Translations under genes and position numbers: made by a program
Virus record (IMG/VR): IMGVR_UViG_3300025141_013870
Location: 54,249 to 118,248 of that record
Length of the DNA: 64,000 nucleotides
Reading direction: 5' to 3' (one strand)
DNA from: a virus
Shown: piece after piece, positions 346-24,772 of the stretch
Position numbering within the stretch: the first letter of the stretch is position 1
How the letters are laid out: every line of letters begins with the position of its first letter
Notes under the pieces: model-generated
The model's database searches: none
What the model was told of the DNA's origin: nothing
What the model saw: the letters and a program-made list of their open reading frames with translations, nothing else

Positions 346-348
346 GGT

Positions 349-5843: not shown

Positions 5844-5853
5844 GGTAATATAA

Positions 5854-7401
5854 ATGTTATTTCAAGATTTGAATATAGAAAAACAAGATACAGATATTTT
5901 AAGCGACGACGCTGTAAAATTTTTATCTGATCTAACAAGAATGTTTAGACAAAGTCTGATATCACTTCTTCAAAGAAGAAACCTGCGTCAGGCATTTTAT
6001 GATGAGAATCACTTTCCTAATTTTTTATCTGAGACAGTAGCTGTTAGACAGGGTGACTGGTCTGTTTGTGACATTCCAAATAGCATAAAAGATCGTCGAG
6101 TTGAGATAACGGGCCCTCCCGATAGAAAGATGATAATCAACGCTTTAAACTCTGGAGCAAAAGTGTATATGGCGGACTTTGAAGATTCAATGTCACCAAC
6201 ATGGGAAAATGTCGTCGATGGTCATGTAAACTTAATAGATGCAACAAGAAAGACCATAACATACGAACACCCAAAAAAAGGAATGTATGAACTTAATGAC
6301 GACGTAGCAGTGCTCTTTGTAAGGCCAAGGGGTCTTCACTTAAATGAATCTAATTTTATAGTTGACAATAAGCCGATTCCAGCATCATTATTTGATTTTG
6401 GATTATTTTTATTTTACAATGGGAAGCTTCTAGCTGATAAAGATGAAGGACCATATTTTTACATACCAAAATTAGAACACTATCTTGAAGCTAGATGGTG
6501 GAATGAGGTATTCACATGGTCACAAGAGGCTTTGGGCATACCGCATGGATCGATAAAGGCAACAGTTCTAATAGAGACTCTACCGGCAGCATTTCAGATG
6601 GATGAGATACTATATGAGCTAAGAGACCATTCAGCTGGCTTAAACTGCGGAAGGTGGGATTATATCTTTAGCTATATAAAGACATTGAGAAATCATGATA
6701 ACAGAATTCTACCAGATAGAAATACTGTCACGATGAATACACATTTTATGAACTCATATGCAAAATTGTTGGTAAAGACATGCCACAAGCGCGGTGCACA
6801 TGCTATGGGTGGAATGGCTGCACAAATTCCCATAAGAGGAGATCAGGAAAAGAATATTAAGGCATTGAACAAAGTCCGCGGAGATAAGATAAGAGAGGTT
6901 AATCTTGGACACGATGGAACGTGGGTCGCTCATCCAGGACTTGTAAAAATTGCAAAAGATGTATTTGATGAATATATGCCAGATGAAAACAATATTGAAA
7001 AGAAGATAGATTTTGTATGCTCAAGAGAAGACCTTCTTGATACACCCCAGGGTGAGATAACAGAGGAATGTTTAAGAAGCAATATCAATATCGGTATTCA
7101 CTATATAGCAGCGTGGCTATCTGGCCAGGGATGCGTTCCTCTTTATAATCTAATGGAGGATGCAGCAACTGCAGAGATATCTCGGGCTCAAACTTGGCAG
7201 TGGCTAAAACATGACAAGATTAGTATTGATAGATTTGAAGAAATTTTTATTGAAGAAATTAATAAAATAAGACATGAAGTTGGTGATTTAACATTTAAAA
7301 ATTCTAATTATGAAAGCGCTTCACAGCTATTCGAACGCTTATCTGTATCTGATGAGCTTGATAATTTTTTAACCTTAAAGGCCTATGAGCTAATATCCTA
7401 A
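5854..7401 (+). CDS. aceB: Malate synthase A
   Basis: [49 protein letters not shown]. Confidence 0.97.
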
Positions 7402-7412
7402 GGATCGTCTAT

Positions 7413-8651
7413 ATGACAACAGTCAAAAGAGATTTACCCCCCATTAAGAGAACCTGGAACCAGGAAGATGTCAACAACCTCAGGGGTAATGTTAAAATTG
7501 AATATTCACTAGCCAGGTCAGGAGCTAACAAGCTATGGAATCTACTTCTAGAAGATGATCCCGTTACTGCGCTAGGAGCGTTAACTGGAAACCAGGCAAT
7601 TCAACAAGTCAGAGGCGGCTTAAAGTCAATATATCTTAGCGGATGGCAGGTAGCAGCTGATGCAAATCTTTCTGGTAACATGTATCCAGATCAAAGCCTA
7701 TATCCGGCAAATAGCGTGCCATCAGTCGTGAAGAGAATAAATCAAGCTCTGCAAAGAACAGATCAGGTTGAGAGCGTTGAAGGGAATATAACTAGAGACT
7801 GGATGGTTCCCATAGTTGCAGATGCTGAAGCTGGATTCGGAGGGCCTCTAAACGCGCATGAGCTTATGAAAGGAATGATCGAAGCCGGCGCAGCAGGTGT
7901 ACACTTTGAGGATCAATTATCTTCAGAAAAGAAATGTGGGCACCTGGGCGGAAAGGTTCTAGTTCCAACATCACAGTTTGTAACAACGTTAAAGGCTGCT
8001 CGTCTAGCTGCTGATGTTATGGACGTACCGACCGTTTTAATTGCAAGAACAGATGCAAATAGCGCAAGATTAATGACATCTGACATAGATCCATATGATC
8101 ACCAGTTTATGACAGGAGAAAGAACGCAGGAAGGATTTTATCGAATCACAGGCGGAATCAATCAGGCAATATCCAGAGGGCTGGCATACGCACCATACGC
8201 AGACTTGCTTTGGTGTGAGACATCTACTCCTGATCTTCACGAAGCTAAACTGTTTGCAGATGCAATTCATGAGAAATTTCCAGGAAAGATTCTAGCATAC
8301 AATTGTTCACCATCGTTTAATTGGAAGAAAAATCTTGATGATGAGACAATAGAGATATTTCAAAGAGAGCTAAACGGTATGGGATATAAGTTTCAATTTG
8401 TAACTCTTGCTGGATTCCACTCACTTAACTACTCAATGTTTGATTTGGCTGATAGATATCGAGATGGCGGAATGACAGCGTACGTTCAGCTTCAGGAGAG
8501 AGAATTTTCAGCAGAGGAAAGAGGATACACGGCGACAAAGCACCAGAGAGAGGTAGGGACTGGATATTTTGATGCAGTTAAGAATGCTCTGTCTGGGGGA
8601 GACTCTTCAACTCTTGCTATGACTGAATCTACAGAGTCTGATCAGTTTTAA
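7413..8651 (+). CDS. aceA: Isocitrate lyase
   Basis: [18 protein letters not shown], catalytic [21 protein letters not shown]. Confidence 0.97.
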
Positions 8652-8653
8652 TT

Positions 8654-9586
8654 ATGGATAAGGACTTTTACAACAAGTCGAGCTCAGACAGCCTTGGGTG
8701 GAAACCTGAGTGGTTCGGGTGTAAATATTTCGATGAGGATCTTGTTAAAGCTGTAAGAAAGTGGCAGCGGGAGAACGGATTAACAGGCGACGGTCTTGTT
8801 GGTCCGATGACATATAGAAGAATATGGACAGAGAGAGAATCTCAAATTGATGAATTTAGACCCTATATCTATAGCCCCAAAGACAGTGCTTTCATAGTTC
8901 ATAATGGAAAATTTATTCCTATAGACTGGGGAAAGGTGATTCTATGGTCTGATACGGGTGGTCTCAAAGCTGCACCAGGAGCCTACTATAGCTATGGGGG
9001 ATCAGAAGATAGAAATCCAACAATGTTTGTAAACCACTGGGATGTCTGTCTATCAGCTGAGAGCTGTGCGAAGGTTCTTGCTAGAAGGGGCGTCTCAGTT
9101 CATTTCTGCATAGACAATGATGGAACGATCTATCAACTTCTTGATACACAGCATGCAGCGTGGCATGCTGGAAATTCAAAGGTAAACAGAGCTAGTGTAG
9201 GTGTGGAAATCTCAAATGCATATTACACAAAATATCAGGACTGGTATGAGAGACACGGGTTTGGAGAGCGACCACTATGGACAGACGCAGAGGTCCACGG
9301 AAAGACGCAGAAACCATTTTTAGGATTCTATGACGTTCAAATAGAGGCAGCTAAAGCTCTATGGAGAGCTATTCATGACGGGCTAGGCATTCCGCTAGAG
9401 TGCCCAGTAGATTCTTCTGGAGATATGGTTACAACAACAGTGAGCGAAGTGGCTTCTGGTAAGTTTAAAGGATTTATTCATCACTTTCATGTAACAAGAG
9501 GAAAGATCGACTGCGCAGGATTCGATCTAAAGAATCCTCTTGATGAAGTTAGAACAAGTAGAAAATATTGTATTGATAAGGAATAG
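8654..9586 (+). CDS. N-acetylmuramoyl-L-alanine amidase with N-terminal peptidoglycan-binding domain (endolysin-like)
   Basis: AVRKWQRENGLTGDGLVGPMT PG-binding motif; Amidase_2 motifs VNHW, SVHFCID, AWHAG, SVGVEI. Confidence 0.85.
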   Translation: MDKDFYNKSSSDSLGWKPEWFGCKYFDEDLVKAVRKWQRENGLTGDGLVGPMTYRRIWTERESQIDEFRPYIYSPKDSAFIVHNGKFIPIDWGKVILWSDTGGLKAAPGAYYSYGGSEDRNPTMFVNHWDVCLSAESCAKVLARRGVSVHFCIDNDGTIYQLLDTQHAAWHAGNSKVNRASVGVEISNAYYTKYQDWYERHGFGERPLWTDAEVHGKTQKPFLGFYDVQIEAAKALWRAIHDGLGIPLECPVDSSGDMVTTTVSEVASGKFKGFIHHFHVTRGKIDCAGFDLKNPLDEVRTSRKYCIDKE

Positions 9587-10636
9587 ATGAAAATGAGACA
9601 TATGAAGATAGAATATGTGTGGATCGATGGTTGCAACCCATGGGGATTAAGATCAAAGGTGAAGGTTTTAAAATTGTCAGATGCCAACTTTAATGACACA
9701 ATAGAAGGGAGCATTGATAACATTCCTGAGTGGGGGTTTGATGGATCGTCAACTGAGCAGGCGTCTGGCGGCGACTCTGATTGTCTTCTACGGCCTGTCA
9801 GGTGTGTCGTAGACTCAATAAGAAACGACTACACCTCAGCAATAGTCTTATGTGACGTTCTTATGGGAGATGGATTTCCCCACCCAACAAACAATAGGTC
9901 GTCACTACTAGAGACATCAAGGCTGTGTGAAAGTCACAAGCCTTTCTTTGGTATCGAGCAGGAGTATACAATAATGAAAGATGAGAGGCCTCTCGGATTT
10001 CCTCCGTCTGGATACCCGGCTCCCCAAGGAAAGTATTATTGCTCAGCGGGCGGAGATAGATCATATGGAAGGAACATATCAGATGAGCATCTAGATGCGT
10101 GCATAGCATCTGGTCTCAATATTACAGGAACAAATGCCGAGGTCATGCCAGGACAGTGGGAATATCAGATAGGGGGACCAGGCGTAGGGCCCGTGGAAGC
10201 GAGTGACGAGCTCTGGATATCTAGATGGATTCTATTAAAGGTAGCAGAGAGAAATGGAATGACTGTCACGTTTGAGCCAAAGCCCATGCTTGGTGACTGG
10301 AATGGCGCAGGATGTCACACAAATTTTAGCACAGAGAAGATGAGAGAGGAAGGCGGCATGAGACACATTGAGCAGGCATGCAAGAAGATGTCAAATAACA
10401 TCCAGCCTCATCTTGACGCGTATGGTGACGGCATAGAGTTTAGACTGACAGGAATGCACGAGACCTGCTCATATAGTGAGTTTAAGTGGGGCGTGGCTGA
10501 TAGAACAGCGTCAATAAGAATACCAAGGGGTGTATCAAATGATGGTCGAGGATATCTCGAGGATAGAAGACCCAATGCCAATTGTGATCCATATCAGGTC
10601 TGTAAGGTGATATTAGAATCGACGTGTATAGATTAA
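9587..10636 (+). CDS. glnII: Glutamine synthetase type II
   Basis: EYVWIDG, FDGSST, GQWEYQIG, GDWNGAGCH, RLTGMHET, GYLEDRRP. Confidence 0.93.
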   Translation: MKMRHMKIEYVWIDGCNPWGLRSKVKVLKLSDANFNDTIEGSIDNIPEWGFDGSSTEQASGGDSDCLLRPVRCVVDSIRNDYTSAIVLCDVLMGDGFPHPTNNRSSLLETSRLCESHKPFFGIEQEYTIMKDERPLGFPPSGYPAPQGKYYCSAGGDRSYGRNISDEHLDACIASGLNITGTNAEVMPGQWEYQIGGPGVGPVEASDELWISRWILLKVAERNGMTVTFEPKPMLGDWNGAGCHTNFSTEKMREEGGMRHIEQACKKMSNNIQPHLDAYGDGIEFRLTGMHETCSYSEFKWGVADRTASIRIPRGVSNDGRGYLEDRRPNANCDPYQVCKVILESTCID

Positions 10637-10669
10637 ACGACTTGGATAAGATACATCATCTTATCCCAT

Positions 10670-10677
10670 ATACTTAT
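10670..10677 (+). promoter_or_regulatory. Putative late promoter motif ATAnTTAW (leaderless start)
   Basis: ATACTTAT 4 nt before ATG 10682, no SD. Confidence 0.45.
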
Positions 10678-10681
10678 TAAC

Positions 10682-10909
10682 ATGAAAACGTATATCACCT
10701 CTGATCTGCCCGTAGCAGCTTTTCTCATGATGAGAGGCCTGGCATTAGTCCGCGCTGATAGGCAGTCTGGTAGGTTTGTATTCGAGCTAGAGGATCCTGA
10801 CGGAAAGGCTGCAAAGTTTGCAATAGAGTATCTAAACAGCGACTTTTGTAAGTTTGATAACTACATAAGAAATTTAAAAAGTGTGCTGTATCAGAATAAA
10901 AAACCTTGA
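10682..10909 (+). CDS. Small hypothetical protein (DUF5659-like)
   Basis: TSDLPVAAFL..RFVFELED pattern. Confidence 0.5.
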   Translation: MKTYITSDLPVAAFLMMRGLALVRADRQSGRFVFELEDPDGKAAKFAIEYLNSDFCKFDNYIRNLKSVLYQNKKP

Positions 10910-11084
10910 GTAGATTCTCGGCTCACGAATATATAATACTAAATCAGTCAGTATTGTAGGTATTCCTTAGAAAGTTAAAAAATGTTAATGATGGTTTGAT
11001 CTGTTTATCTTGCGTGTGTGATAGAAAGAAACGGTCAGTAAAAAAACTTAAACCATTTTTTTAATAACAAAAAGGAGATAAATA

Positions 11085-13529
11085 ATGGCTATAAAATCAC
11101 AAATTAGAGTACAGCAGGTAACAGGATCTATTATAGATATTGCATACTCTGGCTCACAAACATCGGCTACAAGCCTCACATCCGTCGATGATGGGGATCT
11201 TGGTAGTCTTTTAGGTCAGTTTGCTGGCGCAATCGGTAGAATATCCGGTTACAACGGTTCGGCGGCGACTGGGTTCACAAACGCAGCAGCCGGTACATTT
11301 GCTCAGGATATTATTCCGGAAGCAGACGGAACACGTGACTTAGGTTCCTCTACGAGAGAATGGGCAGAGGTTCACGCTAATGCGATTAACTCTGCTGCTA
11401 CACTTGTCATCAGCGGCACTACTGGTCTTACACTTGATGCAACAACAGTGTCAATCGATGGTATTGACGATTCTAACATCACTGTAACAGCATCTGGAAA
11501 GGACTTAAATATCGGCGTTGCTGGCGGCGGAGCTCAAGTACTCAAGCTAGATTCAGCTGGTACAGGTACTGACGCTATTGACGTTAATGCTTCTGCTGGC
11601 GGAATTGACATCGACGCATCCGGTGCAATCAGTTTAGACTCTTCAGCTGGATCAATCGACATCAATGTAGTGGACGGCCAGACGGTGAGCGTCGGCCTAA
11701 ACGGGGCAGTCGAGACAATATGGACGCCACATGCCACTGCAGGTAACGAGAAGTGGTCAACGACCAACACTGCTGGTACCGCGACTGATGCAATTGCGCT
11801 CACTGCGACTGCTGGCGGTGTTACAGTTGATGGCGGAGGTGGTGTCAATATTGTTGGTAACACTGCTGAGGTTGATATTACGACGACAGGTGCACTTGAC
11901 CTAAATTCAGGCGCTTTTACCTTGAATGGATCTACTGTTGGAATTGATGGTACAAGTGTCTTGACTCTGGGTGCAGCTTCAATGAATATTGATTCTGATG
12001 GTGGAGCAATTGATATGGATGCATCAACCACAGTTACCATTGGTGGCTCCAACGCAACCGGCGTTACAATCGGTCGAGCAGATAAGAACGTTACAATTCC
12101 TGGAAACCTGATAGTTAACGGTACTGCAACTTACATTAATACAAGCGAGTTGATGGTAGAAGATAAGCAGGTGGTCATCGGTATTCCTGGTGGCATGACA
12201 GACCCCGGAACTGCTACATACGCTCTAACTTCAGATGTTGTCACGGTAACAAGCGAAGCCCACGGGTTGACGAACGGACAGTATGTTCTCATATCTGATC
12301 CAGCCGCAACGCCACTTATCCCTGAGGGAGTCTATCTGATTACCTCTGTTGCTGATGCTGATACATTCACATTTGCATATGTCAGGGCTAATGTTCCCGC
12401 TGGTACTGCTATCGATCACTCAGTGAACGATGTAACAGACGCTACTGCTAGTGGATCTGGAATAATGCTTGCACCTGCATCAGCTGTACCGACCTTGCTT
12501 AAGTGGGATTCGACGACTGGTTGGCTCTTAGGCGGACCTGCTTCGTCAACTGCTGGCCTTTCACCAAATGTCGACGGCTCAGGAGCTCTTGGTGCTCCAG
12601 CTAAACGATGGGCAGATCTCTTCCTCGCGGAAGGTGGTGTTATCAACTGGGATAATGGTGATATGACCATGACTCAGGCTAGCGATGTTCTTACTGTTGC
12701 TGGCGGCGATATCCTTATGGATACCACTCAGAAGATTACTTTTGGTAACGCTAATAACGCTATCAATCTTAATACTGATCTCGTCATTGATGCTGCTGCT
12801 GACATCACTCTTGATGCCGCTGGTGGAAATGTTAAACCTGCTTCGAATGATCAGGCTGCTCTCGGTGTTAGTGGAACGGGTTGGTCAGACCTATTCCTTG
12901 CTGATGGTGCTGTGATTGACGTTAATGCTGGTAACTCCACTCTCACGGGTGGAAGTGCTGCTTGGGTTTCAAACGTTAAGTTCCAGGCTACAAGACTACA
13001 AGTTGATGGTGCTAATGACTATCTTGATGTCAACACTGATTTCACTATGACTGCTGCTGCAGATATTCGCCTTGCGGCGGGTGGTGCAGATGTTCAGCTT
13101 CGAGGCAGTGGAACCAATGACTTCATCTCCTTACAGAGAGCTAGTACAACAATTCAATACATGAACTTTGCAGCTGATGATTCTTCTGCAGCTCCTGGTG
13201 TTGCTGCAGCCGGTTTCGGTTTCCGCAACAATGCTGGGACCATGCAGTTCAAGAATAGCGCTGGATCATGGCAGAACATCGCTGCTGGAACAGGTGAAGC
13301 TCGTGTTAAGGATGTCGTAACAGTTGCAGCGACAGCGACAGCAGTTACATCCACATCTAGTGGATTCCTAGCATTGGCTCCAAATGATCTTGATGTCTAC
13401 CTAAACGGACAGCTGATGGCATCTGGATCTGGAGGTACTGGTAATGACTATAACGTCACAGCAACAAGTGTGGTTACATTCACATTTAATGTTGAGCCAG
13501 ATGACACCGTAACGTTTGTCAAGCCCTAA
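11085..13529 (+). CDS. Virion structural / tail-fibre-like protein
   Basis: 814 aa G/A/T/D-rich; three P..D....LG....W repeats; strong SD AAGGAG; own terminator. Confidence 0.7.
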   Translation: MAIKSQIRVQQVTGSIIDIAYSGSQTSATSLTSVDDGDLGSLLGQFAGAIGRISGYNGSAATGFTNAAAGTFAQDIIPEADGTRDLGSSTREWAEVHANAINSAATLVISGTTGLTLDATTVSIDGIDDSNITVTASGKDLNIGVAGGGAQVLKLDSAGTGTDAIDVNASAGGIDIDASGAISLDSSAGSIDINVVDGQTVSVGLNGAVETIWTPHATAGNEKWSTTNTAGTATDAIALTATAGGVTVDGGGGVNIVGNTAEVDITTTGALDLNSGAFTLNGSTVGIDGTSVLTLGAASMNIDSDGGAIDMDASTTVTIGGSNATGVTIGRADKNVTIPGNLIVNGTATYINTSELMVEDKQVVIGIPGGMTDPGTATYALTSDVVTVTSEAHGLTNGQYVLISDPAATPLIPEGVYLITSVADADTFTFAYVRANVPAGTAIDHSVNDVTDATASGSGIMLAPASAVPTLLKWDSTTGWLLGGPASSTAGLSPNVDGSGALGAPAKRWADLFLAEGGVINWDNGDMTMTQASDVLTVAGGDILMDTTQKITFGNANNAINLNTDLVIDAAADITLDAAGGNVKPASNDQAALGVSGTGWSDLFLADGAVIDVNAGNSTLTGGSAAWVSNVKFQATRLQVDGANDYLDVNTDFTMTAAADIRLAAGGADVQLRGSGTNDFISLQRASTTIQYMNFAADDSSAAPGVAAAGFGFRNNAGTMQFKNSAGSWQNIAAGTGEARVKDVVTVAATATAVTSTSSGFLALAPNDLDVYLNGQLMASGSGGTGNDYNVTATSVVTFTFNVEPDDTVTFVKP

Positions 13530-13566
13530 TAAGATCTCTTCTAATTAGATTAGATTTTAGTTTCCT

Positions 13567-13607
13567 GGCGGGGTCCTTTTTATAAGGACCCCGCCTTTTT
13601 ATTTTTT
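13567..13607 (+). terminator. Rho-independent terminator
   Basis: Perfect 12-bp stem GGCGGGGTCCTT/AAGGACCCCGCC, 5-nt loop, followed by TTTTTATTTTTT. Confidence 0.9.
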
Positions 13608-13642
13608 CTATCGTTAGTGTTATTATATGCCTGTTGTTATAA

Positions 13643-14167
13643 ATGCCTGGAGTAAACATGACTTTTGAATTGGATGAGATAGGATTATTAATAGAAAAGC
13701 TTAGTAATGAAAGAAATGAGCTAGATGATAACGTGGTTACATTGTCTTCATCTGTTATTCAATTAAGTAACCTGGCCTCTGCGGCGGGAAATATTTCTAA
13801 TAACTTGCAGGTCTCACTTAGTGAATCAGATAATGAATCTGAGACATTAAATATACTGTTAGCTGGATTTAACAATCTTTCATCTCTAGTGAGTTCTCAT
13901 CCTAACGTAATATCACAATCGATAATTAGGATGCAAGCACAGCGCGAGAAGATAGAATCTGTGATAGAAAGTTTAAAAGAATCTCAAGAAAAAATTAACG
14001 TAAGAAATGCTGCACAAGATAAATTAATTAAAAAGCTCAAAGATGAGGGTACCTCATCTGGTGATAGAGAAGTAGGAACACACCCAGATGGTCTTTCAAA
14101 GATAAGAAAAGCTAAGTCAAAAATGAACAAAAAAGACGAGAAGGCCAATACACAGCTTGATACATAA
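13643..14167 (+). CDS. Hypothetical coiled-coil protein
   Basis: 174-aa ORF, heptad-like; start may be ATG 13658 after GGAG. Confidence 0.7.
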   Translation: MPGVNMTFELDEIGLLIEKLSNERNELDDNVVTLSSSVIQLSNLASAAGNISNNLQVSLSESDNESETLNILLAGFNNLSSLVSSHPNVISQSIIRMQAQREKIESVIESLKESQEKINVRNAAQDKLIKKLKDEGTSSGDREVGTHPDGLSKIRKAKSKMNKKDEKANTQLDT

Positions 14168-14185
14168 TATTAGGAGATATCTATC

Positions 14186-14407
14186 ATGTGTGAACTTTTA
14201 TTTGTCTACATAGTCTCTTCTATTCTATTTCTCTCTCTTTGTGTAGGAAGAATATCTGATTTAAAAACTATAGAGGCAACCACAAGAAATAGGGATACAA
14301 AGCTTTTCTGCAAGAGACTGCATGAAAAAGAAGTTGCTAGGTGTAAGACTTTTATTTTTTGGCCAGCTGCTATGTTCTACGAGGTCTGGAAGATTTTTAA
14401 AAAATAA
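14186..14407 (+). CDS. Small membrane-anchored hypothetical protein
   Basis: SD AGGAG; N-terminal hydrophobic stretch. Confidence 0.65.
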   Translation: MCELLFVYIVSSILFLSLCVGRISDLKTIEATTRNRDTKLFCKRLHEKEVARCKTFIFWPAAMFYEVWKIFKK

Positions 14408-15096
14408 TGTCTCAAATAAAAAATCTTCTTTTAAAGTTCAGATATCTTAAAAGTGAGCTTGAGAGAGTTGACACAATAGTTTCTGAATCAAAGAAGCAAT
14501 TTTTAGACAGATCAAGAAAAATTCAGAAGGATCTAAACGTTTATGACTCTGATTTTGATAGACCTTTTGAGAAAAGATCCGATGAATCTGATTATAAAAA
14601 AGACGATTCACCAGAGATAAATTGCGATCTCAATGATGATGTGGTTAAATCTGAAAAGCCAGCGTGGTCGAAAAAGCTTTTTAGAAAGATAGCCACTATA
14701 ACACATCCAGATAAGATACCAGAAAATCTAAGCGATGTAGTTAAGGATAAATTTTTAAATTTTTATAAATCTGCCACTGAATCATATGAATCTAATTCAT
14801 TTTTAGATCTCATAGATATTGGCGAGAATCTGGGAATAAAGATAGAAGACATGGGCAACATCGATATCTCAAGTTTAAACTCTAAAATTAAAACAATCGA
14901 AGATAGGATATTTGAATTAAAAAGCACAATTTTCTGGGAGTGGTGGCACATGAGCAAAGAACAAAAAAGGGAAGTCATCAAAAAATTTGTGAAAGATAGA
15001 GGGTGGGAAAGCGCTAGAGCACAATCTAAAAAATCTCGCCCCGGGCATCCGGGAACATCTATATCCCAGAGTAGGAAAAAGATGCAAAAAGATTAA
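14407..15096 (+). CDS. J-domain-like (HPD motif) protein
   Basis: KKLFRKIATITHPDK resembles J-domain helix II-HPD. Confidence 0.6.
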   Translation: MSQIKNLLLKFRYLKSELERVDTIVSESKKQFLDRSRKIQKDLNVYDSDFDRPFEKRSDESDYKKDDSPEINCDLNDDVVKSEKPAWSKKLFRKIATITHPDKIPENLSDVVKDKFLNFYKSATESYESNSFLDLIDIGENLGIKIEDMGNIDISSLNSKIKTIEDRIFELKSTIFWEWWHMSKEQKREVIKKFVKDRGWESARAQSKKSRPGHPGTSISQSRKKMQKD

Positions 15097-15180
15097 TTTA
15101 CGTTCTGGCGGATAGGTATTAATATCCGGGGCTGAATTATTGATTTTTGTTCTCTAGCTTCTATTAAGTCGTTTAGATTC

Positions 15181-15498
15181 ATGTTAAAGATGATTTTGAT
15201 TATGAATCTTATAGACGCTCTTGCCACCTTGGTGTGGATTAGGCTAGGGCTCGCTGAGGAAGAAAATCCAATGATGGCATTTGTTTTAGAAAATAATGAA
15301 TCAGCATTCATCATCATTAAGACAGCCTTGGTGATATTATCAATATTACTATTGTGGAGAATAAGAACAGAGATGCTGGCAAGAATTTTAATCATTCCTG
15401 TTTTTTTATCTTATGTGTATGTCATGATTTTGCATACATCTGCCACGATTAACGTTATTACCGGAGGTGCGTTATGGAATCTTTTAATATTGCACTAG
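15181..15498 (+). CDS. Membrane protein (DUF5658-like)
   Basis: NLIDALAT..EENPMM..F..IK pattern, three hydrophobic segments. Confidence 0.6.
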   Translation: MLKMILIMNLIDALATLVWIRLGLAEEENPMMAFVLENNESAFIIIKTALVILSILLLWRIRTEMLARILIIPVFLSYVYVMILHTSATINVITGGALWNLLILH

Positions 15499-15866
15499 CA
15501 TTTTTAGTGGGCTGCATTGTATCATGCATATTTTTTACGATTGGAAGATTCATAGGAAAAATAGAAAAAGAATCTAAAGATAGAGATGACAGGGTACAGG
15601 ATCTATTTGACGGAATCATTCATAATAATGAAGATGAATATGAACAAAGTTTTAAAAATTCATTTTCTGATGAGATGATAATTGACGCAGAGTATGAAGA
15701 TGTGGTTTTAGATCTTCAGGAATATAGAAAGAGAAAAATATCACAAGAAGAAAATTTTGATAGTCTTCTTGGCTATGAAATCATGTACCATAAGAAAAAT
15801 AATGAGTATATTAAAGTACCACGTGAGATTGCAGATCTCATAAAGTATCTTAAAAAGCACACATAA
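15474..15866 (+). CDS. Hypothetical protein with N-terminal TM
   Basis: 130-aa ORF, SD GGAGG. Confidence 0.7.
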   Translation: MESFNIALAFLVGCIVSCIFFTIGRFIGKIEKESKDRDDRVQDLFDGIIHNNEDEYEQSFKNSFSDEMIIDAEYEDVVLDLQEYRKRKISQEENFDSLLGYEIMYHKKNNEYIKVPREIADLIKYLKKHT

Positions 15867-15868
15867 TT

Positions 15869-16114
15869 ATGAATGAGAAAAATGTAGGAGAAATAGCAAG
15901 GGCTACATCTAAGGTTCTTGTCATAATCACATTGTGTATATTTTGTGGCTGGTGGATAAAGGAGAGGACTCTAACTCCAGATATCATGAAAGAGTGTAAG
16001 CTAACATGCGGAAACTTTTCAGGTTATGTCGAAGAGGTAACTGTGACAAGATGTGAATGCTCTCAAGAAAGAGCTAAAATTATTGAAAGTCCATGGGTTT
16101 TGCCAAAAAAGTAA
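15869..16114 (+). CDS. Small Cys-containing membrane-anchored hypothetical protein
   Basis: TM segment then CxxxC..CxC. Confidence 0.65.
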   Translation: MNEKNVGEIARATSKVLVIITLCIFCGWWIKERTLTPDIMKECKLTCGNFSGYVEEVTVTRCECSQERAKIIESPWVLPKK

Positions 16115-16121
16115 TACTTAT
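16114..16121 (+). promoter_or_regulatory. Putative late promoter motif (leaderless start)
   Basis: ATACTTAT 2-5 nt before ATGATG at 16124/16127. Confidence 0.45.
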
Positions 16122-16123
16122 TA

Positions 16124-16489
16124 ATGATGCGCATCTCTAGAAAAATACTCAGATCACTAATATTAAGAGAAGTTAAGCTGTCTTTAAATAATCTAGACAG
16201 ACTTATGGAGTCTGCGCTGGTATCTAAGATGATATCTGGGAAGGACCCTGCGGAAATAGCTAGCGGAATATCTAAGATAAAGGATCTTGATGGAATGATT
16301 TTGAATGCGCTAAAAGATAAAAGCGGGTTCAAGTCTGCTATATCAAAACTAGACGATGAACAATCTAACCTGCTTGTTAGTGTGCTTGGACAACTACGAG
16401 GTTCGCTGGCCCCAAGCACATTTACTAAATTAAAGAAAGAAATAATTGCATCTAAACCAGATTTAAAAGATAAGCTGTCTGCCATGTAA
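16124..16489 (+). CDS. Hypothetical protein with LRxLIxxE motif (putative virion internal protein)
   Basis: N-terminus MRISRKILRSLILREV. Confidence 0.7.
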   Translation: MMRISRKILRSLILREVKLSLNNLDRLMESALVSKMISGKDPAEIASGISKIKDLDGMILNALKDKSGFKSAISKLDDEQSNLLVSVLGQLRGSLAPSTFTKLKKEIIASKPDLKDKLSAM

Positions 16490-16512
16490 ATTAGATCTTA
16501 TACTTGTATTAT
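16485..16512 (+). promoter_or_regulatory. Putative TGTAWW-N16-TAnnnT promoter
   Basis: TGTAAA-N16-TATTAT, ATG 6 nt downstream. Confidence 0.5.
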
Positions 16513-16518
16513 TGTATA

Positions 16519-16959
16519 ATGATGAATTGGCGTCCTCCTAAATCACCGTACAATCTTATTCAGGAACATCTTTGGGAAGATCCCTGGAAGATATTTGTCG
16601 CGTGTATATTTTGCAATCTAACAAGAAGAGTCGACGCTGAACCGTATATGTGGAAATTCTTTGAGAGATATCCCACGCCAGACTCTGCATCAGAGGCTGA
16701 TGTCGATGACATAGCAGATATGATAGGCCCGCTCGGACTCTCTCAGAGACGATCTAAGACCCTGGTTAAGATGTCCTATGATTATATCAACGAGGACTGG
16801 AGAAGCGATCCTGCAGTTCTCTATGGGATCGGAAAGTATGCATCTGATGCGTATCGAATCTTTTGCCTCGGTGAATGGAGAGATGTTCGACCAAAGGATC
16901 ACGCATTAAATGATTATCATAACTGGTTAAAAAAAGAGAATCATAATACGTTGTTATAG
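16519..16959 (+). CDS. MBD4-like HhH-GPD DNA glycosylase (T:G/U:G mismatch)
   Basis: WRPPKSPYNLIQE..DPWK, LYGIGKYASDAYRIFC, RPKDH closely mirror the MBD4 glycosylase domain. Confidence 0.85.
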   Translation: MMNWRPPKSPYNLIQEHLWEDPWKIFVACIFCNLTRRVDAEPYMWKFFERYPTPDSASEADVDDIADMIGPLGLSQRRSKTLVKMSYDYINEDWRSDPAVLYGIGKYASDAYRIFCLGEWRDVRPKDHALNDYHNWLKKENHNTLL

Positions 16960-16974
16960 ATCAGTATTGATAGT

Positions 16975-16982
16975 ATATTTAA
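16975..16982 (+). promoter_or_regulatory. Putative late promoter motif (leaderless start)
   Basis: ATATTTAA 4 nt before ATG 16987. Confidence 0.45.
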
Positions 16983-16986
16983 TATC

Positions 16987-17148
16987 ATGCTGATAACAGA
17001 AAGAAGTCTAAGAGCTCTCATTAGAAACGAGCTACGCCTATATTCAAATAAAATACTTGAGGCGAGATTTAAGGGCTGGAGTCCAAGGGGAGATATTGGG
17101 GATTTGATTGACCAGAATCTTGAAGCTAAAGAAGATGACATAGCATGA
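16987..17148 (+). CDS. 53-aa protein missed by ORF track, LRxLIxxE motif
   Basis: MLITERSLRALIRNELRLYSNKILEARFKGWSPRGDIGDLIDQNLEAKEDDIA; stop overlaps next ATG (ATGA). Confidence 0.7.
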   Translation: MLITERSLRALIRNELRLYSNKILEARFKGWSPRGDIGDLIDQNLEAKEDDIA

Positions 17149-18002
17149 TTCTTTCAAGAAAAAATCTTAGGATGCTCATACACGATGTCATGCTTAAGGA
17201 GTCAAAGTATTTTGGCATGTCTGTGGAAGAGGTTCTTTCATTTTTTGATAAGTTTAGTCAAAATACGTGGATATTTTTTGATACAGAGACCACTGGTCTT
17301 CCACGGGATGTACAAAAGGGACAGATAACAGAGATAGGTGCGGTTGCTGTAAATCCTAAAAACTGGAATGACGATGCTGAAATTCTTGGTGAATTCAACG
17401 AGAAGATCACGTTAAATCCGGACACACTTGCAACAATTGAAAGACAGAGGCCTGATACAGAAAGTACACATACTAGTAGCAGGGTGTGGACAGTGGAAAA
17501 GGCACTTGAGATGACACGATATCATGAGTGGGATAGAGAATATAAAGATGAGCAGGATGTTATCAAAGGGTTTATAGAGTTTGTACAGTCATTTTCCAAT
17601 CCGGTTCTTGTAGCGCAGAACGCATCATTTGACATGAAGTGGATCTTCGCACGGTCAGAGACAAAGATGAATAGATACCCTGTTATAGACACAATGAAGA
17701 TAATGCAGCTATTTTTAATTCCGCTTCTTAAGACTTTGCGTGATAAGCATGGAGACGTTGAGGCTAGAGAATTTTTACAGCTGATTAGAAAAGGTAGAAT
17801 GTATTCGTCGTCTCAGGGCGTTGTTTCAGCTGCATATGGAATATCTACGGATAACTGGCATAGTGCAATTGGAGATGTTGAGATGCTCATGGATCTCTTT
17901 CAGCACGTAGTTGACACCCTTAGAGAGGGAGAAGGTGTGGACATAAGCGGAGAGCATGGAAAGACAGCTGCGTATGCGATGAAGAGAAAGAGAAGAAGAT
18001 AA
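17145..18002 (+). CDS. DEDDh 3'-5' exonuclease (DnaQ/epsilon-like) with N-terminal LRxLI motif
   Basis: FFDTETTG (ExoI), AQNASFD (ExoII), WHSAIGD (ExoIII). Confidence 0.85.
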   Translation: MILSRKNLRMLIHDVMLKESKYFGMSVEEVLSFFDKFSQNTWIFFDTETTGLPRDVQKGQITEIGAVAVNPKNWNDDAEILGEFNEKITLNPDTLATIERQRPDTESTHTSSRVWTVEKALEMTRYHEWDREYKDEQDVIKGFIEFVQSFSNPVLVAQNASFDMKWIFARSETKMNRYPVIDTMKIMQLFLIPLLKTLRDKHGDVEAREFLQLIRKGRMYSSSQGVVSAAYGISTDNWHSAIGDVEMLMDLFQHVVDTLREGEGVDISGEHGKTAAYAMKRKRRR

Positions 18003-18003
18003 C

Positions 18004-18660
18004 TTATTCGTGTTTCTTTAGTCTAGCAACTCCATCTACTATCGTCACATATGTCTGATGTGTGACCCAGTCTCCAGCATTTATATATGTTTTAATATCT
18101 TCGTCTGAATTAATCCACACGAGAGCTTCAGGAATATGCGTATGACCCATGATAAATACATCAACATCAGGATTATGTCTTAGTATATGAATCACGCTTC
18201 TAAGCTTGTGCTTTTTGATTTGCTTTTCTGTCCACCATGTAGTAAAGTCAAAATTAAAAGTAAATTCTAGTATATTTTGAATTACCGAAAGAATTATAAC
18301 AAATATTTTGTTGTGAAGGACACCCTTATCATATTCGTCACCATGCTCAATTCTAAAATTTCTACCGTGAGATTCAAAGTCATATCTCTTTACAAACTCT
18401 ACATTGTGAACATTTTTTCCTACAAGATTTAAAAGGCTCTGATCATGATTGCCTACAACATATATTATTTTTTTATTGTAATTGACTGCGCTTATAATCT
18501 CTAGACACCTTTCAGTGAATATAGGAATTTTAATAAAGTCTATGATATCACCTGCAAGTATTAATTCATCATAGCTTTCTGACTTTAAAAATGACAGAAG
18601 CTGCTCTGATTTGTAGAATTTACTTCCAATGTGTGTATCAGAGACGACAATTCTTTTCAT
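18004..18660 (-). CDS. Calcineurin-like metallophosphoesterase, LpxH-like
   Basis: SDTHIG, AGDIID, GNHD, EHGD, GHTH, NAGDW; only convincing minus-strand gene. Confidence 0.85.
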   Translation of the reverse strand: MKRIVVSDTHIGSKFYKSEQLLSFLKSESYDELILAGDIIDFIKIPIFTERCLEIISAVNYNKKIIYVVGNHDQSLLNLVGKNVHNVEFVKRYDFESHGRNFRIEHGDEYDKGVLHNKIFVIILSVIQNILEFTFNFDFTTWWTEKQIKKHKLRSVIHILRHNPDVDVFIMGHTHIPEALVWINSDEDIKTYINAGDWVTHQTYVTIVDGVARLKKHE

Positions 18661-18791
18661 TGAATAAGCGCCTTTATAATATGATTATAATCAAAATTTT
18701 GCCCTTGTTTTTCTATAAAAACAGAGAGATACACTTATAGTTTCAGTGTTTATAATAATGAATATCCGAAAGGAATTAACAGGAGAAAAAA

Positions 18792-19037
18792 ATGTATAGA
18801 ATGTCAGACGAAGTTATTTCACAAATTGCAAAGCTTGTTCAGCTTGCAATTATCACTGGAACAGATGTCGTAGATAATCTTAGAATGATAAGAGTTGAAC
18901 CGTCTGAGGAAGATGGCGCATGTCTTTCACTGACACAAGAGTACAGAGAGATTGGTGAAAATCAGATTAATAGTTTGCTGTCTGAGCTTGACAATGTCAA
19001 TACTTCAGATGAGGAAGTAGATGTCGAAATCGAGTGA
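18792..19037 (+). CDS. Hypothetical protein
   Basis: SD AGGAG, 81 aa. Confidence 0.75.
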   Translation: MYRMSDEVISQIAKLVQLAIITGTDVVDNLRMIRVEPSEEDGACLSLTQEYREIGENQINSLLSELDNVNTSDEEVDVEIE

Positions 19038-19404
19038 TAATCTAAAACACATGTTTGATCTAAGAGAGTCATTTATGGTATCTCTTAGAAAGAAGTTTTC
19101 TACTGAAAATCCTGAATGGCCACTAGATCTTTCTACAAAAGAACATCAACAATATTGCAGAGACATAGCACTGAGAGGTGTTGAAGAGATGTTTGAAGCT
19201 CTGCAGCATTTAAAAAACTGGAAGCCACATCGGACAACTGAGATAACTGAATTTGACAGAGATGAGTTTTTAGAAGAGGTAGTAGATGCTTTTAATTACT
19301 TTTTATCTTTGTTAGTTTTGACAGGCTTTTCATCAGAAGATTTTTACAAGATGTATGTCAAGAAGGATAAGATTATACATGAAAGACTCAAAGGCGACTA
19401 TTAG
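19021..19404 (+). CDS. All-alpha dimeric dUTPase/dCTPase (dUTPase_2 / T4 gp56-like)
   Basis: VEEMFEAL..KNWKPH, LEEVVDAFNYF, KK..I.ER...Y. Confidence 0.75.
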   Translation: MSKSSDNLKHMFDLRESFMVSLRKKFSTENPEWPLDLSTKEHQQYCRDIALRGVEEMFEALQHLKNWKPHRTTEITEFDRDEFLEEVVDAFNYFLSLLVLTGFSSEDFYKMYVKKDKIIHERLKGDY

Positions 19405-20332
19405 AGATTTATTTGAATTACAAAAAAGATTTAATGATATTTTCTATGATATGGATGATATCGGATCAAGAGAACGAGAAGAGATCACAAAATCTTTAGC
19501 GCTAGCATTACACACTGAGGTTAGCTCTCTTATATCTGCAATAAACTTTAAAGATCACAGGCAGAATAAAAAAGATGCTGATGAATACAAGATCTTGTTT
19601 GAAAGTGTAGATATATTTCGATATCTTATTTCTATTCTAAACATCTGGGATATCACGCCAGAAAGATTTACAGAGGCATTTCTTGATAAGGATTTGTTTC
19701 TTCATGCAAGATACAAGATCAATTCTAGCAAGTGGTCGGGACAGGATGTAATCATAGTAGATCTTGATGATGTAGTAATAGAATTTAGGAATGGTTTTCT
19801 AGAGTGGCTTAGTGATACATATAAAATATTTGTTGACCCTGATAGCAAAGAATACTATACAACTGCTGAATTAAAAAATGCTGGTGTTAATCCTGAAAAG
19901 GTATTTTCTAATTTTATTAAGAGTAGAGGATTAAGATCTTTAGAAAAAAATCAAGATATGATTGATGTAATTAACAAGCTGAGTGCAGACGGATATTGGA
20001 TTCAGCTTTTAACAGCTAGACCGCAAGATAATCTTGTGTGCCATTACGATACGTTTAGATGGATAGAAAGCTCTAATTTAAAATATGATAGATTAGATTT
20101 CAGCAATGAAAAATATAGATGGTGTACCCAGTCTGATTATTTTGATAGCAACAGTATCGTGTGTGCTATAGATGACTCAGCTAAGCATAGTGCTGAATAT
20201 GCAAAACACGGAATTCCAGTTTTTCTTCCTTCAAAAAGTTACAACACTGAAGTACACAATATGACCAATGTAACAGTGTTTGATGATCCGAGAGACGTGT
20301 GGGAAAAAGTTAAATCTCTTAAGAATAAGTAG
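19379..20332 (+). CDS. Fusion: divergent all-alpha NTP pyrophosphatase + HAD 5'(3')-deoxyribonucleotidase
   Basis: N-half LFESVDIFRY; C-half IIVDLDDVV, LLTARP, AIDDS. Confidence 0.7.
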   Translation: MKDSKATIRDLFELQKRFNDIFYDMDDIGSREREEITKSLALALHTEVSSLISAINFKDHRQNKKDADEYKILFESVDIFRYLISILNIWDITPERFTEAFLDKDLFLHARYKINSSKWSGQDVIIVDLDDVVIEFRNGFLEWLSDTYKIFVDPDSKEYYTTAELKNAGVNPEKVFSNFIKSRGLRSLEKNQDMIDVINKLSADGYWIQLLTARPQDNLVCHYDTFRWIESSNLKYDRLDFSNEKYRWCTQSDYFDSNSIVCAIDDSAKHSAEYAKHGIPVFLPSKSYNTEVHNMTNVTVFDDPRDVWEKVKSLKNK

Positions 20333-20352
20333 AATAGGATGGCTTACCTCAA

Positions 20353-21414
20353 ATGATAGATAGAAAATCACTAAGAGATATGATACATGAGATGTCTAAA
20401 TCATCACTATTTGAACAGGATGATACAAATGAAAGAATATCAGCAAGTGATTATGAAAAGATATATTCAGATTCACAGCAATACTTTAGAATCACGCTTA
20501 ACAAGTATGTGGAGAGAATTTCTTCAGAACAATATAAGAAAAAAATAAAAAATCAACTAAGGAAAGATGGATTTAAAGATAGCGAAATAGATGAATTTTT
20601 AGATGATAGTGACTTTCTAGACAGGGTTTCATCTGCAATAGAAAATGCTTCTATTGTTGTTGTCACAAACTCATCTTTTAATTATGACAGACTTGACAGG
20701 TGGTACGGGGCCGTACTTTCAGAAAGAAGCGAAAAATCATGGGCGCCAGATTTTAATAAGCTAAAGGATTCAATTAAAGATTCTGGAAGGATAGCGCAAC
20801 TACTTTTAAAGGTAAAAACATCTATAGGTGATTTTGTAAATCAGACTAGATCATTTGATAGTCCGATTATTCTTATAAGTTTTGAAAATTTTAAAGATGG
20901 AAAAGGAGATCTGAAAGGAACAGTTGAACATGAGGTAGACCATATTCAAGGCTTAATGGTTTCGAAAGCTAGAAAGATTATTAAAAAATCTCCTGATGAG
21001 CCAGAGACATTTTCATCTGCAGTGATATCTCTCGTAAGAGACCCGAGGATTGGAGGATGGGACGAGTGGGTGATTGATAGATTCCAAGGAGATAAAAGAG
21101 AAGCGTTTAATTTTTTAAAAGATTCATTTCAAGGAAATTTAGATCCTTCAAATCCTAGAGGAGTAGAGGAGTCCAGAAATAGATTTCGCGAGCTAAATGA
21201 TAAGCTCGGTGAATCTGAAGCTGCATTAAAAAAATTTCTTAGCAATGAAATTTCTAACCCTACGCCGCACATCCAGCTTGTCTCTAAGTACGGTAGAAGA
21301 ATTGCTCAGATAGTTCCGTTAATAAATTATGACTTGGGTGTGGATGAACTTGCGTCTATGATTTATGGAATAGCTTCTGCAGAAATGCCAGAAAAAAAAT
21401 CTAAAATAGTTTGA
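20353..21414 (+). CDS. Putative virion-associated zinc metallopeptidase-like protein
   Basis: N-terminal LRDMIHE..LFEQ motif; VEHEVDH (HExxH). Confidence 0.5.
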   Translation: MIDRKSLRDMIHEMSKSSLFEQDDTNERISASDYEKIYSDSQQYFRITLNKYVERISSEQYKKKIKNQLRKDGFKDSEIDEFLDDSDFLDRVSSAIENASIVVVTNSSFNYDRLDRWYGAVLSERSEKSWAPDFNKLKDSIKDSGRIAQLLLKVKTSIGDFVNQTRSFDSPIILISFENFKDGKGDLKGTVEHEVDHIQGLMVSKARKIIKKSPDEPETFSSAVISLVRDPRIGGWDEWVIDRFQGDKREAFNFLKDSFQGNLDPSNPRGVEESRNRFRELNDKLGESEAALKKFLSNEISNPTPHIQLVSKYGRRIAQIVPLINYDLGVDELASMIYGIASAEMPEKKSKIV

Positions 21415-21422
21415 TATTTTAA

Positions 21423-21450
21423 TGTAATTCAGTCGGTTATGAGGTATATT
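21423..21450 (+). promoter_or_regulatory. Putative TGTAWW-N16-TAnnnT promoter
   Basis: TGTAAT-N16-TATATT. Confidence 0.5.
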
Positions 21451-21475
21451 TGTTATGCATATAAAAGGAGGCTTT

Positions 21476-21733
21476 ATGCGCTATCTTCTCGTTTCTATTT
21501 TTCTAACTTTTACCTCAACTGCGCATGCAGACGACAAGATCAAGGAGGATCCCAAGGTTGTTTACAAGCAGCGTACTGAGATCGACTTTGAAGGTGTTGA
21601 AATCGCAGGCGAGCTTGTTCGGCCGCAAGGATCTCTCATCCACGAGCGGCGCCATGCAACTTTTAACCCTTTAATCAAGCTTCGTACTGACTTTGACGCA
21701 GAAATGTCACAGTCTGTAGACGAGATCAAGTAA
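21476..21733 (+). CDS. cglF: CglF/GltF-like adventurous gliding motility protein
   Basis: Signal peptide (..AHA|DD) then YKQRTEIDFEGVEIAGELVRPQG..FNPLIKLRTDFDAEMSQSVDEI, matching the myxobacterial CglF pattern as recalled; SD GGAGG. Confidence 0.75.
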   Translation: MRYLLVSIFLTFTSTAHADDKIKEDPKVVYKQRTEIDFEGVEIAGELVRPQGSLIHERRHATFNPLIKLRTDFDAEMSQSVDEIK

Positions 21734-21751
21734 AATATAAAGGATAAAGGC

Positions 21752-22732
21752 ATGCCGCAAAATTTTGACTTAGATCCTATTGTACTACCAATGGATTTAA
21801 AGTTTGATCAAGATCCTACTACAGAGTTTTATAATAATCTACAAGCACTAAAGGTAGAGCTGATTGATTATCCAACCAGAACTCAGGCTTTAAAGGTTGC
21901 ATGGCAATATGTCAAGGCTACGTGGGCTGATCATCATGATGAAACAACCACTGCTGGAATTGATCCAGCAGAGCTATCAAAAAATCTTGAAGATGTTATG
22001 TGCTTTAGAGCTCTTCCCACTCCAATGGAGTGTCTTGGGTTCACGTTTAAATTGAGCGGGCTTTCATTTCAAGAGGTCACGCATATTATTCGTCACAGAG
22101 CAGGATCTTTTGCTGCTCAATGCACGGGAGATAGAGATCTTAGAAGTGATCCGGCTGTAATTCCCGAGGCTGTTCAAAATTCTCCTGAGTTTCTTGAGAG
22201 ATGGAAGAATCTTGTCTTAGAGTCTAAACAGTTATATGCAGACATGACTGATAGTAAAGATGTTTCAATGATGGATGCCAGGATGGTTCTTCCAAAGTGT
22301 ATGACTTCTTTTTATCTTATGAGAATGAATTTAAAAGATTTGCTTGGATTTATTCGACAGAGGCAGGATAAGCAGATTCAGCCAGCTGCTGACAACATTC
22401 TCGCCGCATATATGGCTAGAGAACTAATTAATGTGCTACCAGAAGCATCTGTAGCTATTAGATTCGACTCACCTGACATGCACTATATCAAGACATTTAG
22501 AGTTAAAGAAGCAGGAAGATGGACAAGTAAGGGGACAAATCTATACTGGCCTGAGCCAAAGAATGATACATTTGAGTATCATCCAGACGACACCATATAT
22601 CAGGCTCGAAGAGAATCAATTAACGGAACAAAGAAGCCAGACGGTCCTACAGTTTTTGAAAGATTATGGGACGATGTTATGAATGATATTAGTTTCATGA
22701 AGACAGAATATAATAAAAACAAATTAGAATAA
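21752..22732 (+). CDS. thyX: ThyX-like flavin-dependent thymidylate synthase (divergent)
   Basis: HIIRHR motif, DARMVLP, NLKDLLGFIRQR. Confidence 0.75.
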   Translation: MPQNFDLDPIVLPMDLKFDQDPTTEFYNNLQALKVELIDYPTRTQALKVAWQYVKATWADHHDETTTAGIDPAELSKNLEDVMCFRALPTPMECLGFTFKLSGLSFQEVTHIIRHRAGSFAAQCTGDRDLRSDPAVIPEAVQNSPEFLERWKNLVLESKQLYADMTDSKDVSMMDARMVLPKCMTSFYLMRMNLKDLLGFIRQRQDKQIQPAADNILAAYMARELINVLPEASVAIRFDSPDMHYIKTFRVKEAGRWTSKGTNLYWPEPKNDTFEYHPDDTIYQARRESINGTKKPDGPTVFERLWDDVMNDISFMKTEYNKNKLE

Positions 22733-22802: not shown

Positions 22803-23243
22803 ATGAAGGCATATATAGCAAGTTCGTGGTTTAATCCTGTAGCTAATCAGGAGGTAAACGATATTATTAGCTCTCTAGCAGAAAATAATTTTGAATTTTT
22901 TTCACCTAGAGATTTTTTTGTGTGTCCACCAGGCGCTGACCTAGAGACTCAAAAATCAACATATGAAGGAAATCTTGAACATCTTCACAATTGTGATTTC
23001 ATGATATGTAATACGCACGGAAAAGACATGGGATCAATTTTTGAGGCAGGATACTTTAAGGCACTAGATAAGCCTATTGTTTACTTTTGTGCAGGGTTGC
23101 CAGAGGGAGCATCATTTAATCTTATGCTAGCTCAAAGCGGTGTGACTGTGTGCACGTCAAAAGATCAACTAAGTGACTATCTATCTAGGTGTAGTGATCA
23201 AGAGCAGCTTCTTTTTGAGCCATATTACGGCAGTATTGAATGA
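22803..23243 (+). CDS. Nucleoside 2-deoxyribosyltransferase / dNMP N-glycosidase family
   Basis: YIASSWF, FSPRD, DMGSIFEAGY..ALDKPIV. Confidence 0.8.
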   Translation: MKAYIASSWFNPVANQEVNDIISSLAENNFEFFSPRDFFVCPPGADLETQKSTYEGNLEHLHNCDFMICNTHGKDMGSIFEAGYFKALDKPIVYFCAGLPEGASFNLMLAQSGVTVCTSKDQLSDYLSRCSDQEQLLFEPYYGSIE

Positions 23244-23713: not shown

Positions 23714-23728
23714 TAGCTAGGTTTGTTT

Positions 23729-24772
23729 ATGAAAAAAGATTATTATGAAATATTAGGAGTTAATAAAGATTCTACGCCAGATGAGATCAAAAAGGTGTAT
23801 AGAGGACTTGCTTTAAAATATCATCCTGATAAAAATCCAGATGATAAGGATGCAGAGCAGATGTTTAAAAATATCTCTGAGGCATATGCAGTTTTATCAG
23901 ATAAAGAAAAACGATATAACTATGATAATTTCGGGCATCATGGGGACCAACAGTTTCCAGGAGGCTTTGAAGATATATTTGATCACTTTTCTGGAATGTT
24001 TGGAGGTACATTTGGATCTGAATTTTTCAATAGACAAAGAAGATCTGCACCTGTTGGGAACCCTGTTGCGATAAAAGTTCCTATTACTCTTGAAGAAGTT
24101 CTTTCCGGAACAGTAAGAGATATAAATTTTTCTAGAATAGATTCATGCGAAGAGTGTAGCGGGCGTGGATTCATCAACGATCATGATGTTGGAATTTGTG
24201 AAGGGTGTAGCGGAAGCGGTCAATCTCATCACAGTGTCGGGTTTGTCAAGGTCCAGATGACATGTGGTCAATGCGGCGGCACAGGAAAGAAAATAACTAA
24301 TCCATGTTCATCTTGTAATGGAAAAGGATTAAATCATAAGAAAGATAATGTGACTATAACAATTCCCCCTGGCGTCTTAGAGGGTGACCAGCTATGTATC
24401 TCTGGAAAAGGAAACAGGCCATCTAACAATCACGCACCTGGAGATCTTGTTTTAATCATGTCAATAGTAGGTGACAATAGATTTGAAAGAGATGGACCTC
24501 ATCTTTATAGCAGAGAGTCTATATCGTTCCCGCAAGCAGCACTCGGCACGTCTATTATAGTAGATTTAATAGACGGAAAGATAAACCTCGCGATACCGCC
24601 TGGTACACAACCAAACTCTATGATGAGCATTCCAAAAAGAGGGTTGCCCATCGATACGCAAAATTCCGAAAGGGGTCACCACTATGTCAGAATTTCAGTA
24701 GAAGTTCCAAAGTCATTAAGCGCCAGAGAGAGAGAAATAATAGAGAAACTTAGAGACATTGAAAGCGTGTAA
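23729..24772 (+). CDS. dnaJ: Chaperone DnaJ
   Basis: J domain with HPD, G/F region, four CxxCxGxG repeats. Confidence 0.95.

Follow-up and report, generated by a model that had tools for sequence, protein, structure and literature searches.

The closest known counterpart of the gene reported here is gltF, also named cglF, of Myxococcus xanthus (MXAN_4868; NCBIfam family NF033764). Its product is needed for gliding and localizes to focal adhesion sites, and the gene was found to be confined to Myxococcales and Bdellovibrionales (PMC3169522). In a published structural model, M. xanthus GltF is largely disordered; its C-terminal helix is lodged in a GltC crevice, and one strand pairs with GltG at the latter's TonB-like C-terminal domain, by which GltF bridges the outer-membrane platform to GltD/GltG (PMC11761067). 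A paralogue, NfsF, belongs to the Nfs spore-coat machine. The nfs operon has a contiguous A/B-C-D-E-F-G-H layout. We found no literature report of a phage-borne gltF or of any phage-borne subunit of a gliding-type machine. A parallel is offered by host-derived auxiliary genes of marine T4-like phages such as cyanophage psbA: as with the gene described below, one subunit of a large host machine, of rapid or probably rapid turnover, has been copied into the phage, purifying selection maintains it, and the phages have a GC content far below that of the host; the difference is that the target would here be an envelope-spanning, motility-type machine and not metabolism or photosynthesis.

The DNA analyzed (the window, 64,000 nucleotides) corresponds to bases 54249-118248 of a 118,248-base IMG/VR record. 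A gltF/cglF homologue of 85 codons plus stop occupies positions 21476-21733 of the plus strand (ATG at 21476, TAA at 21731-21733), as defined by its open reading frame, its translation and a match to NF033764. A Shine-Dalgarno sequence, AAGGAGG (21465-21471, plus strand), precedes the ATG with a 4-nt spacer, as the original prediction of a strong ribosome-binding site had it, and is kept in three syntenic phage loci (L052, L053 and L025). A further in-frame ATG at position 21455 is without an SD site. Since the SD sequence stands before 21476, none accompanies the upstream ATG and GltF homologues are 79-88 aa long, the start was placed at 21476. The same prediction had given the gene its own promoter, and this held in part. 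In four syntenic phage loci a -10-like element, GTATAnT, is conserved at an identical distance from the ATG, and alignment of the four upstream regions identifies the window copy, TATATT (21445-21450, plus strand), as a candidate promoter element; a scan for the sigma-70 consensus upstream of gltF, however, found no promoter, and there is no canonical -35 at TATATT. In the syntenic locus L025 (9960-10000), a clean extended -10 (TGGTATAAT) lies 5' of gltF, at the aligned position where the window has its weaker hexamer TATATT. The gene is flanked by a gene for a 353-aa protein on one side and by thyX on the other, with neither gltE nor gltG as a neighbor. In one RNA run, the part of the window that was present was 22808-23049, which is outside gltF.

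A search with the NF033764 profile (gliding_CglF) gave a significant, full-length match to the phage protein (E 5.9e-16, 58.3 bits; residues 5-84 against profile positions 5-88 of 88), which is far beyond chance, and every letter of the CglF residue pattern proposed earlier is present in the translation. Together with the open reading frame and a Sec-type leader, the match bears out the predicted secreted 85-aa CglF/GltF homologue. The score of 58.3 bits is below the equivalog cut-off of this model (adventurous gliding motility protein CglF), which is set at 90 bits. The positional gltF of a marine Myxococcota metagenome-assembled genome (MAG; locus L037), located between gltE and gltG, is also below it and scores even lower (50.9 bits), so a sub-cut-off score is normal for the marine lineage; judged by these two proteins, the cut-off leaves out the whole marine GltF lineage and not the phage copy alone. 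Pfam and PHROGs searches with phage GltF returned no usable match. The phage protein shares with M. xanthus GltF/CglF a size of 80-90 aa, a signal peptide and the match over the full profile, and its close cellular relatives are placed between gltE and gltG. It differs in that the phage gene stands alone, scores below the equivalog cut-off and is carried by a T4-like phage.

Residues 1-18 (21476-21529, plus strand) form a predicted Sec signal peptide, read by eye from the sequence; it has a single basic residue and a hydrophobic core, and the cut would follow A-H-A. In an alignment of 37 relatives, all homologues begin with a hydrophobic leader that closes with A-x-A, and the sequence together with this alignment predicts a small exported-type protein with a mature part of approximately 65 aa. 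This mature, GltF-like linker (21530-21730, plus strand) comprises a conserved stretch (Y30-V41), a short helix (residues 53-59) and a C-terminal helix (residues 73-84). AlphaFold2 predicted the last two with a pLDDT of 86-88, added a leader helix (residues 2-12) and left the chain otherwise extended, with no compact fold (pTM 0.21). The predicted phage protein and the published M. xanthus model are thereby alike: both appear mostly unstructured, with a strand segment and a C-terminal helix. When the mature phage protein was modeled with the C-terminal domain of GltG from L037, the predicted complex scored 0.37 (best control, 0.00), with at least 88% contact agreement between runs and a partner pLDDT of at least 50. 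Of 80 solved complexes, 58 reach the mark applied to such predictions, as do 2 of 110 mismatched pairs; only 7 of the 80 complexes, but both mismatches, do so at scores of 0.60 or less. The GltG C-terminal domain is 81-88% identical to that of L037 across the aligned MAG loci. The modeled complex gives weak support to binding of GltG by phage GltF.

The record carries genes for a T4-type major capsid protein (gp23; PF07068, 216.7 bits) and a T4-type portal protein (gp20; PF07230, 260.2 bits), and by this gene content the contig is a real phage, as had been proposed, here an uncultured marine giant phage of the T4-like kind. Two independent metagenome contigs, L052 (124 kb) and L053, are collinear with the window for more than 12 kb, through dUTPase-like genes, the gene for the 353-aa protein, gltF, thyX, and genes for a deoxyribosyltransferase, dnaJ and dnaE; their GltF proteins are 82% and 75% identical to the window copy, respectively. 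An unrelated run of 2025 yielded a contig of 2,317 bases that covers positions 19944-22238 with 5 differences. The GC content around gltF is a uniform 37%. The window also encodes a full-length Hsp70 (DnaK; 61820-63715, 836 bits), DnaJ (23723-24772) and an asparagine synthase (56273-57871).

Relatives of this GltF are numerous: 668 were found among 5.8 billion proteins, many of them 65-86% identical and from marine surveys, and when 1.84 billion cluster representatives were scanned without a profile, 673 clusters matched at E ≤0.001. In IMG/VR, gltF is present on 34 viral contigs with a GC content of 37-47%; none of the isolated phages in INPHARED carries it. The best 80 metagenome loci fall into two kinds, 76 having low-GC flanks and no glt neighbor, and four having high-GC flanks and a glt cluster. 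All 16 gltF loci found in species-representative genomes have a GC content of 57-70%, and these and the four high-GC metagenome loci (20/20) share one gene order: two genes for outer-membrane barrels, gltC, gltD, gltE, gltF, gltG and cglE (gltH). In the 16 species-representative loci, a gene for a choice-of-anchor-D protein ends the cluster after cglE (gltH). Such contiguous clusters also match the A/B-C-D-E-F-G-H layout of the Nfs machine, and separating the Glt and Nfs types among them calls for an Nfs-specific model. Most of the 16 cellular loci come from records titled Myxococcota, and 156 of 301 sampled genomes of this candidate host phylum have a gltF match. Four loci (L040, L043, L041 and L051) are titled Enterobacterales, Alphaproteobacteria or Cognaticolwellia, yet contain a glt cluster of 58-67% GC that is syntenic with those of the Myxococcota MAGs; their titles or binning are probably wrong. 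Some cellular clusters contain tandem gltF paralogues of about 40% mutual identity (L036, 283-1020; L046, 9367-10246), a pattern that recurs in several Myxococcota genomes. A search for GltJ in five MAGs gave weak, partial matches only, which do not discriminate between gliding-type and Nfs-type clusters. Eight proteins of 636-1345 aa (P0159, P0171, P0182, P0192, P0215, P0231, P0232 and P0262) contain an internal GltF-like segment, and may be fusions with neighboring glt genes or gene-calling read-throughs. In the phage record and the viral loci, tblastn with the L037 Glt proteins revealed no other glt gene.

In a tree of the mature region, a branch with support 91 separates all 76 phage-type copies from the 16 cellular ones, and in a tree with a paralogue as outgroup, 73 of the 76 nest within the cellular set, adjoining the L038/L115 lineage. 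The simplest reading of both trees would be a single capture from a marine Myxococcota-like donor, which the 62 columns of the alignment leave short of proof. A first tree, built with leaders and distant representatives included, had given three phage groups; the multiple acquisitions that it implied were dropped, the mature-only tree giving one side. Pairwise comparison of the phage copies (241 phage-phage pairs) gives a median dN/dS of 0.09 at a dS of about 1.1. Across the 76 phage and 16 cellular sequences, Y30, T34-V41, G45, L47, P50, G52, L54, R58, F63, N64, R70 and F73 are invariant; the phage copies retain all residues that are invariant in cellular GltF, and the two consensus sequences differ at 4 of 62 positions, each time conservatively. 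The GC3 of the window gltF (0.48) is the highest of the window ORFs (mean 0.31, z 3.2; 75 ORFs of at least 80 aa), while its syntenic relatives have values of 0.40 (L052) and 0.35 (L053). The high GC3 fits a foreign, higher-GC origin, and is suggestive only, not decisive, with respect to a recent capture. One further copy (L119, 862-1107) has a GC3 of 0.65 within flanks of 41% GC and combines a cell-type GALLLDRKRA and a phage-type FNSMIKLR segment in one protein; it may reflect a recent exchange of alleles between host and phage.

Two lipoprotein genes with a von Willebrand factor A (VWA) domain and a DxSxS MIDAS motif are located near the end of the window. The product of the first (58587-59570, plus strand; 327 aa) has a lipobox ending in FLGC and the MIDAS sequence DTSGS. 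The second (59580-61229, plus strand; 549 aa) encodes a lipobox ending in ITSC, two HYDIN/choice-of-anchor-D Ig domains and a VWA/MIDAS domain (DNSGS), supported by Pfam and NCBIfam matches; its N-terminal Ig domains were also flagged by tblastn with the L037 Glt proteins, and a PDB sequence search with it returned a marginal HYDIN match only. Full-length homologues of the 549-aa protein (28-37% identity, E down to 1e-80) occur in the MAGs that have the closest cellular gltF, where the VWA lipoprotein family has 3-31 matches per genome, partly in tandem, and each of its look-alike clusters in the atlas is assigned to either Uroviricota or Myxococcota. By these similarities the two phage lipoproteins belong to a Myxococcota-expanded family. 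Their local matches to the Bdellovibrio MIDAS-family adhesin Bd0875 (NF052240; E 2.7e-10) and to M. xanthus CglD (NF033765; E 2.9e-8) span approximately 50-65 residues around the MIDAS and are far below the cut-offs, and the Ig-Ig-VWA architecture sets the phage proteins apart as a separate family.

In about 30 related phage loci, a homologue of the 327-aa lipoprotein gene lies 0.3-7 kb 5' of gltF, and the order VWA lipoprotein, trypsin-like protease (with a signal peptide), NUDIX and gltF is kept. This cassette is compact in L033-35 and L109-L129, contains inserts of about 4 kb in the main clade, and in L128 and L130 has the VWA gene directly adjoining gltF. Examples are L112 (3173-6258), L002 (4086-10246) and L130 (2516-4520), with inserts of 0 to about 4 kb before gltF. 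A gene for a lectin-like Laminin_G_3 protein often follows gltF in the main phage clade. In the window, gltF is found among nucleotide-metabolism genes, 37 kb away from the VWA genes, and the 118-kb record has no homologue of the protease or of NUDIX; from the comparison of these loci, the arrangement in the window is a derived one.

The original prediction had taken the gene as a pointer to the host group, and as far as gene content goes, which is the evidence here, Myxococcota are a reasonable assignment: the nearest cellular relatives are positional gltF genes in full glt-type clusters of MAGs titled Myxococcota, and the VWA family is shared. The nearest donors of the phage gene are marine Myxococcota-like MAGs. 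Since selection holds all partner-facing residues of the phage protein, the infected cell must have the partners of GltF. The host thus very probably carries a Glt/Nfs-type machine, and the sequence evidence points to marine myxobacteria. A general DNA search, not built for spacers, of window positions 1-20000 against 401 Myxococcota genomes had no spacer-like match among the matches listed; the 63-85% matches were to conserved metabolic genes only (iscU, aceB and aceA regions). There is no tRNA or tmRNA gene in the window or in the 118-kb record. The GC content of the phages is 37-39% vs. 57-70% in the candidate hosts. A comparable difference in GC separates T4-like cyanophages from the bacteria they infect.

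The reading we prefer, to which we assign a probability of about 0.5, is that the gene encodes a working GltF that supplies or retunes the linker of a Glt/Nfs-type machine of the host. GltF would be made by the phage during infection and exported to the periplasm by the Sec system of the host, a marine Myxococcota-like bacterium. There it would replace host GltF at the point where the outer-membrane platform (GltC) meets the part in the inner membrane and periplasm that is coupled to the motor (GltD, and GltG with its TonB-like C-terminal domain). Once host expression has been shut down, the phage protein would replenish a linker that is small, mostly unstructured and probably short-lived, so that the machine is kept running or its stoichiometry is set, alongside the exported lipoproteins of the phage itself. 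Both the action on the host machine and the possession of one by the host are what we infer. A wider version of the scheme is more speculative and rather improbable as a whole: the cassette of one or two VWA/MIDAS lipoproteins, the protease and GltF would have been taken from myxobacterial hosts, and GltF would couple the Glt platform to the adhesin-like lipoproteins of the phage, as the Glt outer-membrane complex loads and exposes CglB, thereby reprogramming surface adhesion, gliding or receptor display.

The main competitor of supply or retuning is interference, a possible but less favored explanation, by which an excess of phage linker would saturate GltC and GltG/GltD separately and uncouple the platform from the motor, stopping gliding or adhesin cycling or, if the machine is Nfs-like, spore-coat assembly. 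The phage could gain superinfection exclusion, which includes the receptor masking suggested previously, or an infected cell barred from dormancy. Supply or retuning is favored over such jamming since neither interface shows decay: throughout the mature protein the phage and cellular consensus sequences are almost the same, and nothing in the former marks a one-sided blocker. The full conservation of both interface segments, however, fits an excess competitor as well as a replacement. The strong SD sequence and the likely dedicated promoter element suggest high expression, a point in favor of jamming, as is the capture of the linker alone, the phage DNA searched having no other glt gene. Phages are also known to block host surface motility machines against other phages, as Pseudomonas phages do with type IV pilus inhibitors. 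Against this, phage inhibitors of a host machine are, as far as we know, seldom closely homologous to one of its subunits, and no Glt component is known to be a phage receptor. A change of partner appears unlikely. Here the GltF-like protein would work mainly with the exported VWA/MIDAS lipoproteins and the trypsin-like protease of the phage, and not with the host Glt machine; this would account for the cassette order kept across many phage lineages and for the adjacency of the VWA gene and gltF in L128 and L130. Yet the residues that are invariant in cells are invariant in all phage copies, which implies the same partners as in cells, and in the window the VWA genes are 37 kb off, with the protease and NUDIX homologues absent from the record.

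Two simpler accounts deny the gene a role or a place in the phage. A recently captured host gene, carried as a passenger, would fit the elevated GC3 of the window copy (0.48, z 3.2) and its higher-GC foreign source, but it is made very improbable by the occurrence of gltF on 34 IMG/VR contigs and in 76 low-GC metagenome loci of diverged phages, by a dN/dS of 0.09 at saturating dS, and by leaders that are intact in all copies. Still harder to credit is a cellular contig or a phage/bacterial chimera: IMG/VR records can be misassembled and CheckV puts the completeness of this one at 37%, yet the record that carries gltF also has the T4-type capsid and portal genes, the flanking GC is uniform at 37%, independent contigs repeat the order over more than 12 kb, and the contig of the 2025 run matches across gltF.

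As far as we know, no structural subunit of a gliding-type envelope machine has been described before among phage auxiliary genes, and phage gltF would be the first. We know of no cultured phage of marine myxobacteria, and these bacteria are themselves, as far as we are aware, uncultured. For that reason a phage-borne subunit of a lineage-restricted machine is a rare gene-content marker, by which marine T4-like phages of a large and abundant group can be linked to probable hosts. The 76 phage and 16 cellular sequences also constitute a natural set of minimal, highly conserved GltF variants in which the key residues are marked, and the linked genes for VWA lipoproteins and a protease suggest that these phages may reprogram the host surface in ways that have not been described.

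The 2025 run (X4) that yielded the 2,317-base contig is labeled with an organism (coded) and not as a metagenome. It matches positions 19944-22238 at 99.8% identity and a depth of about 2, and may help to trace the host, or a holobiont.
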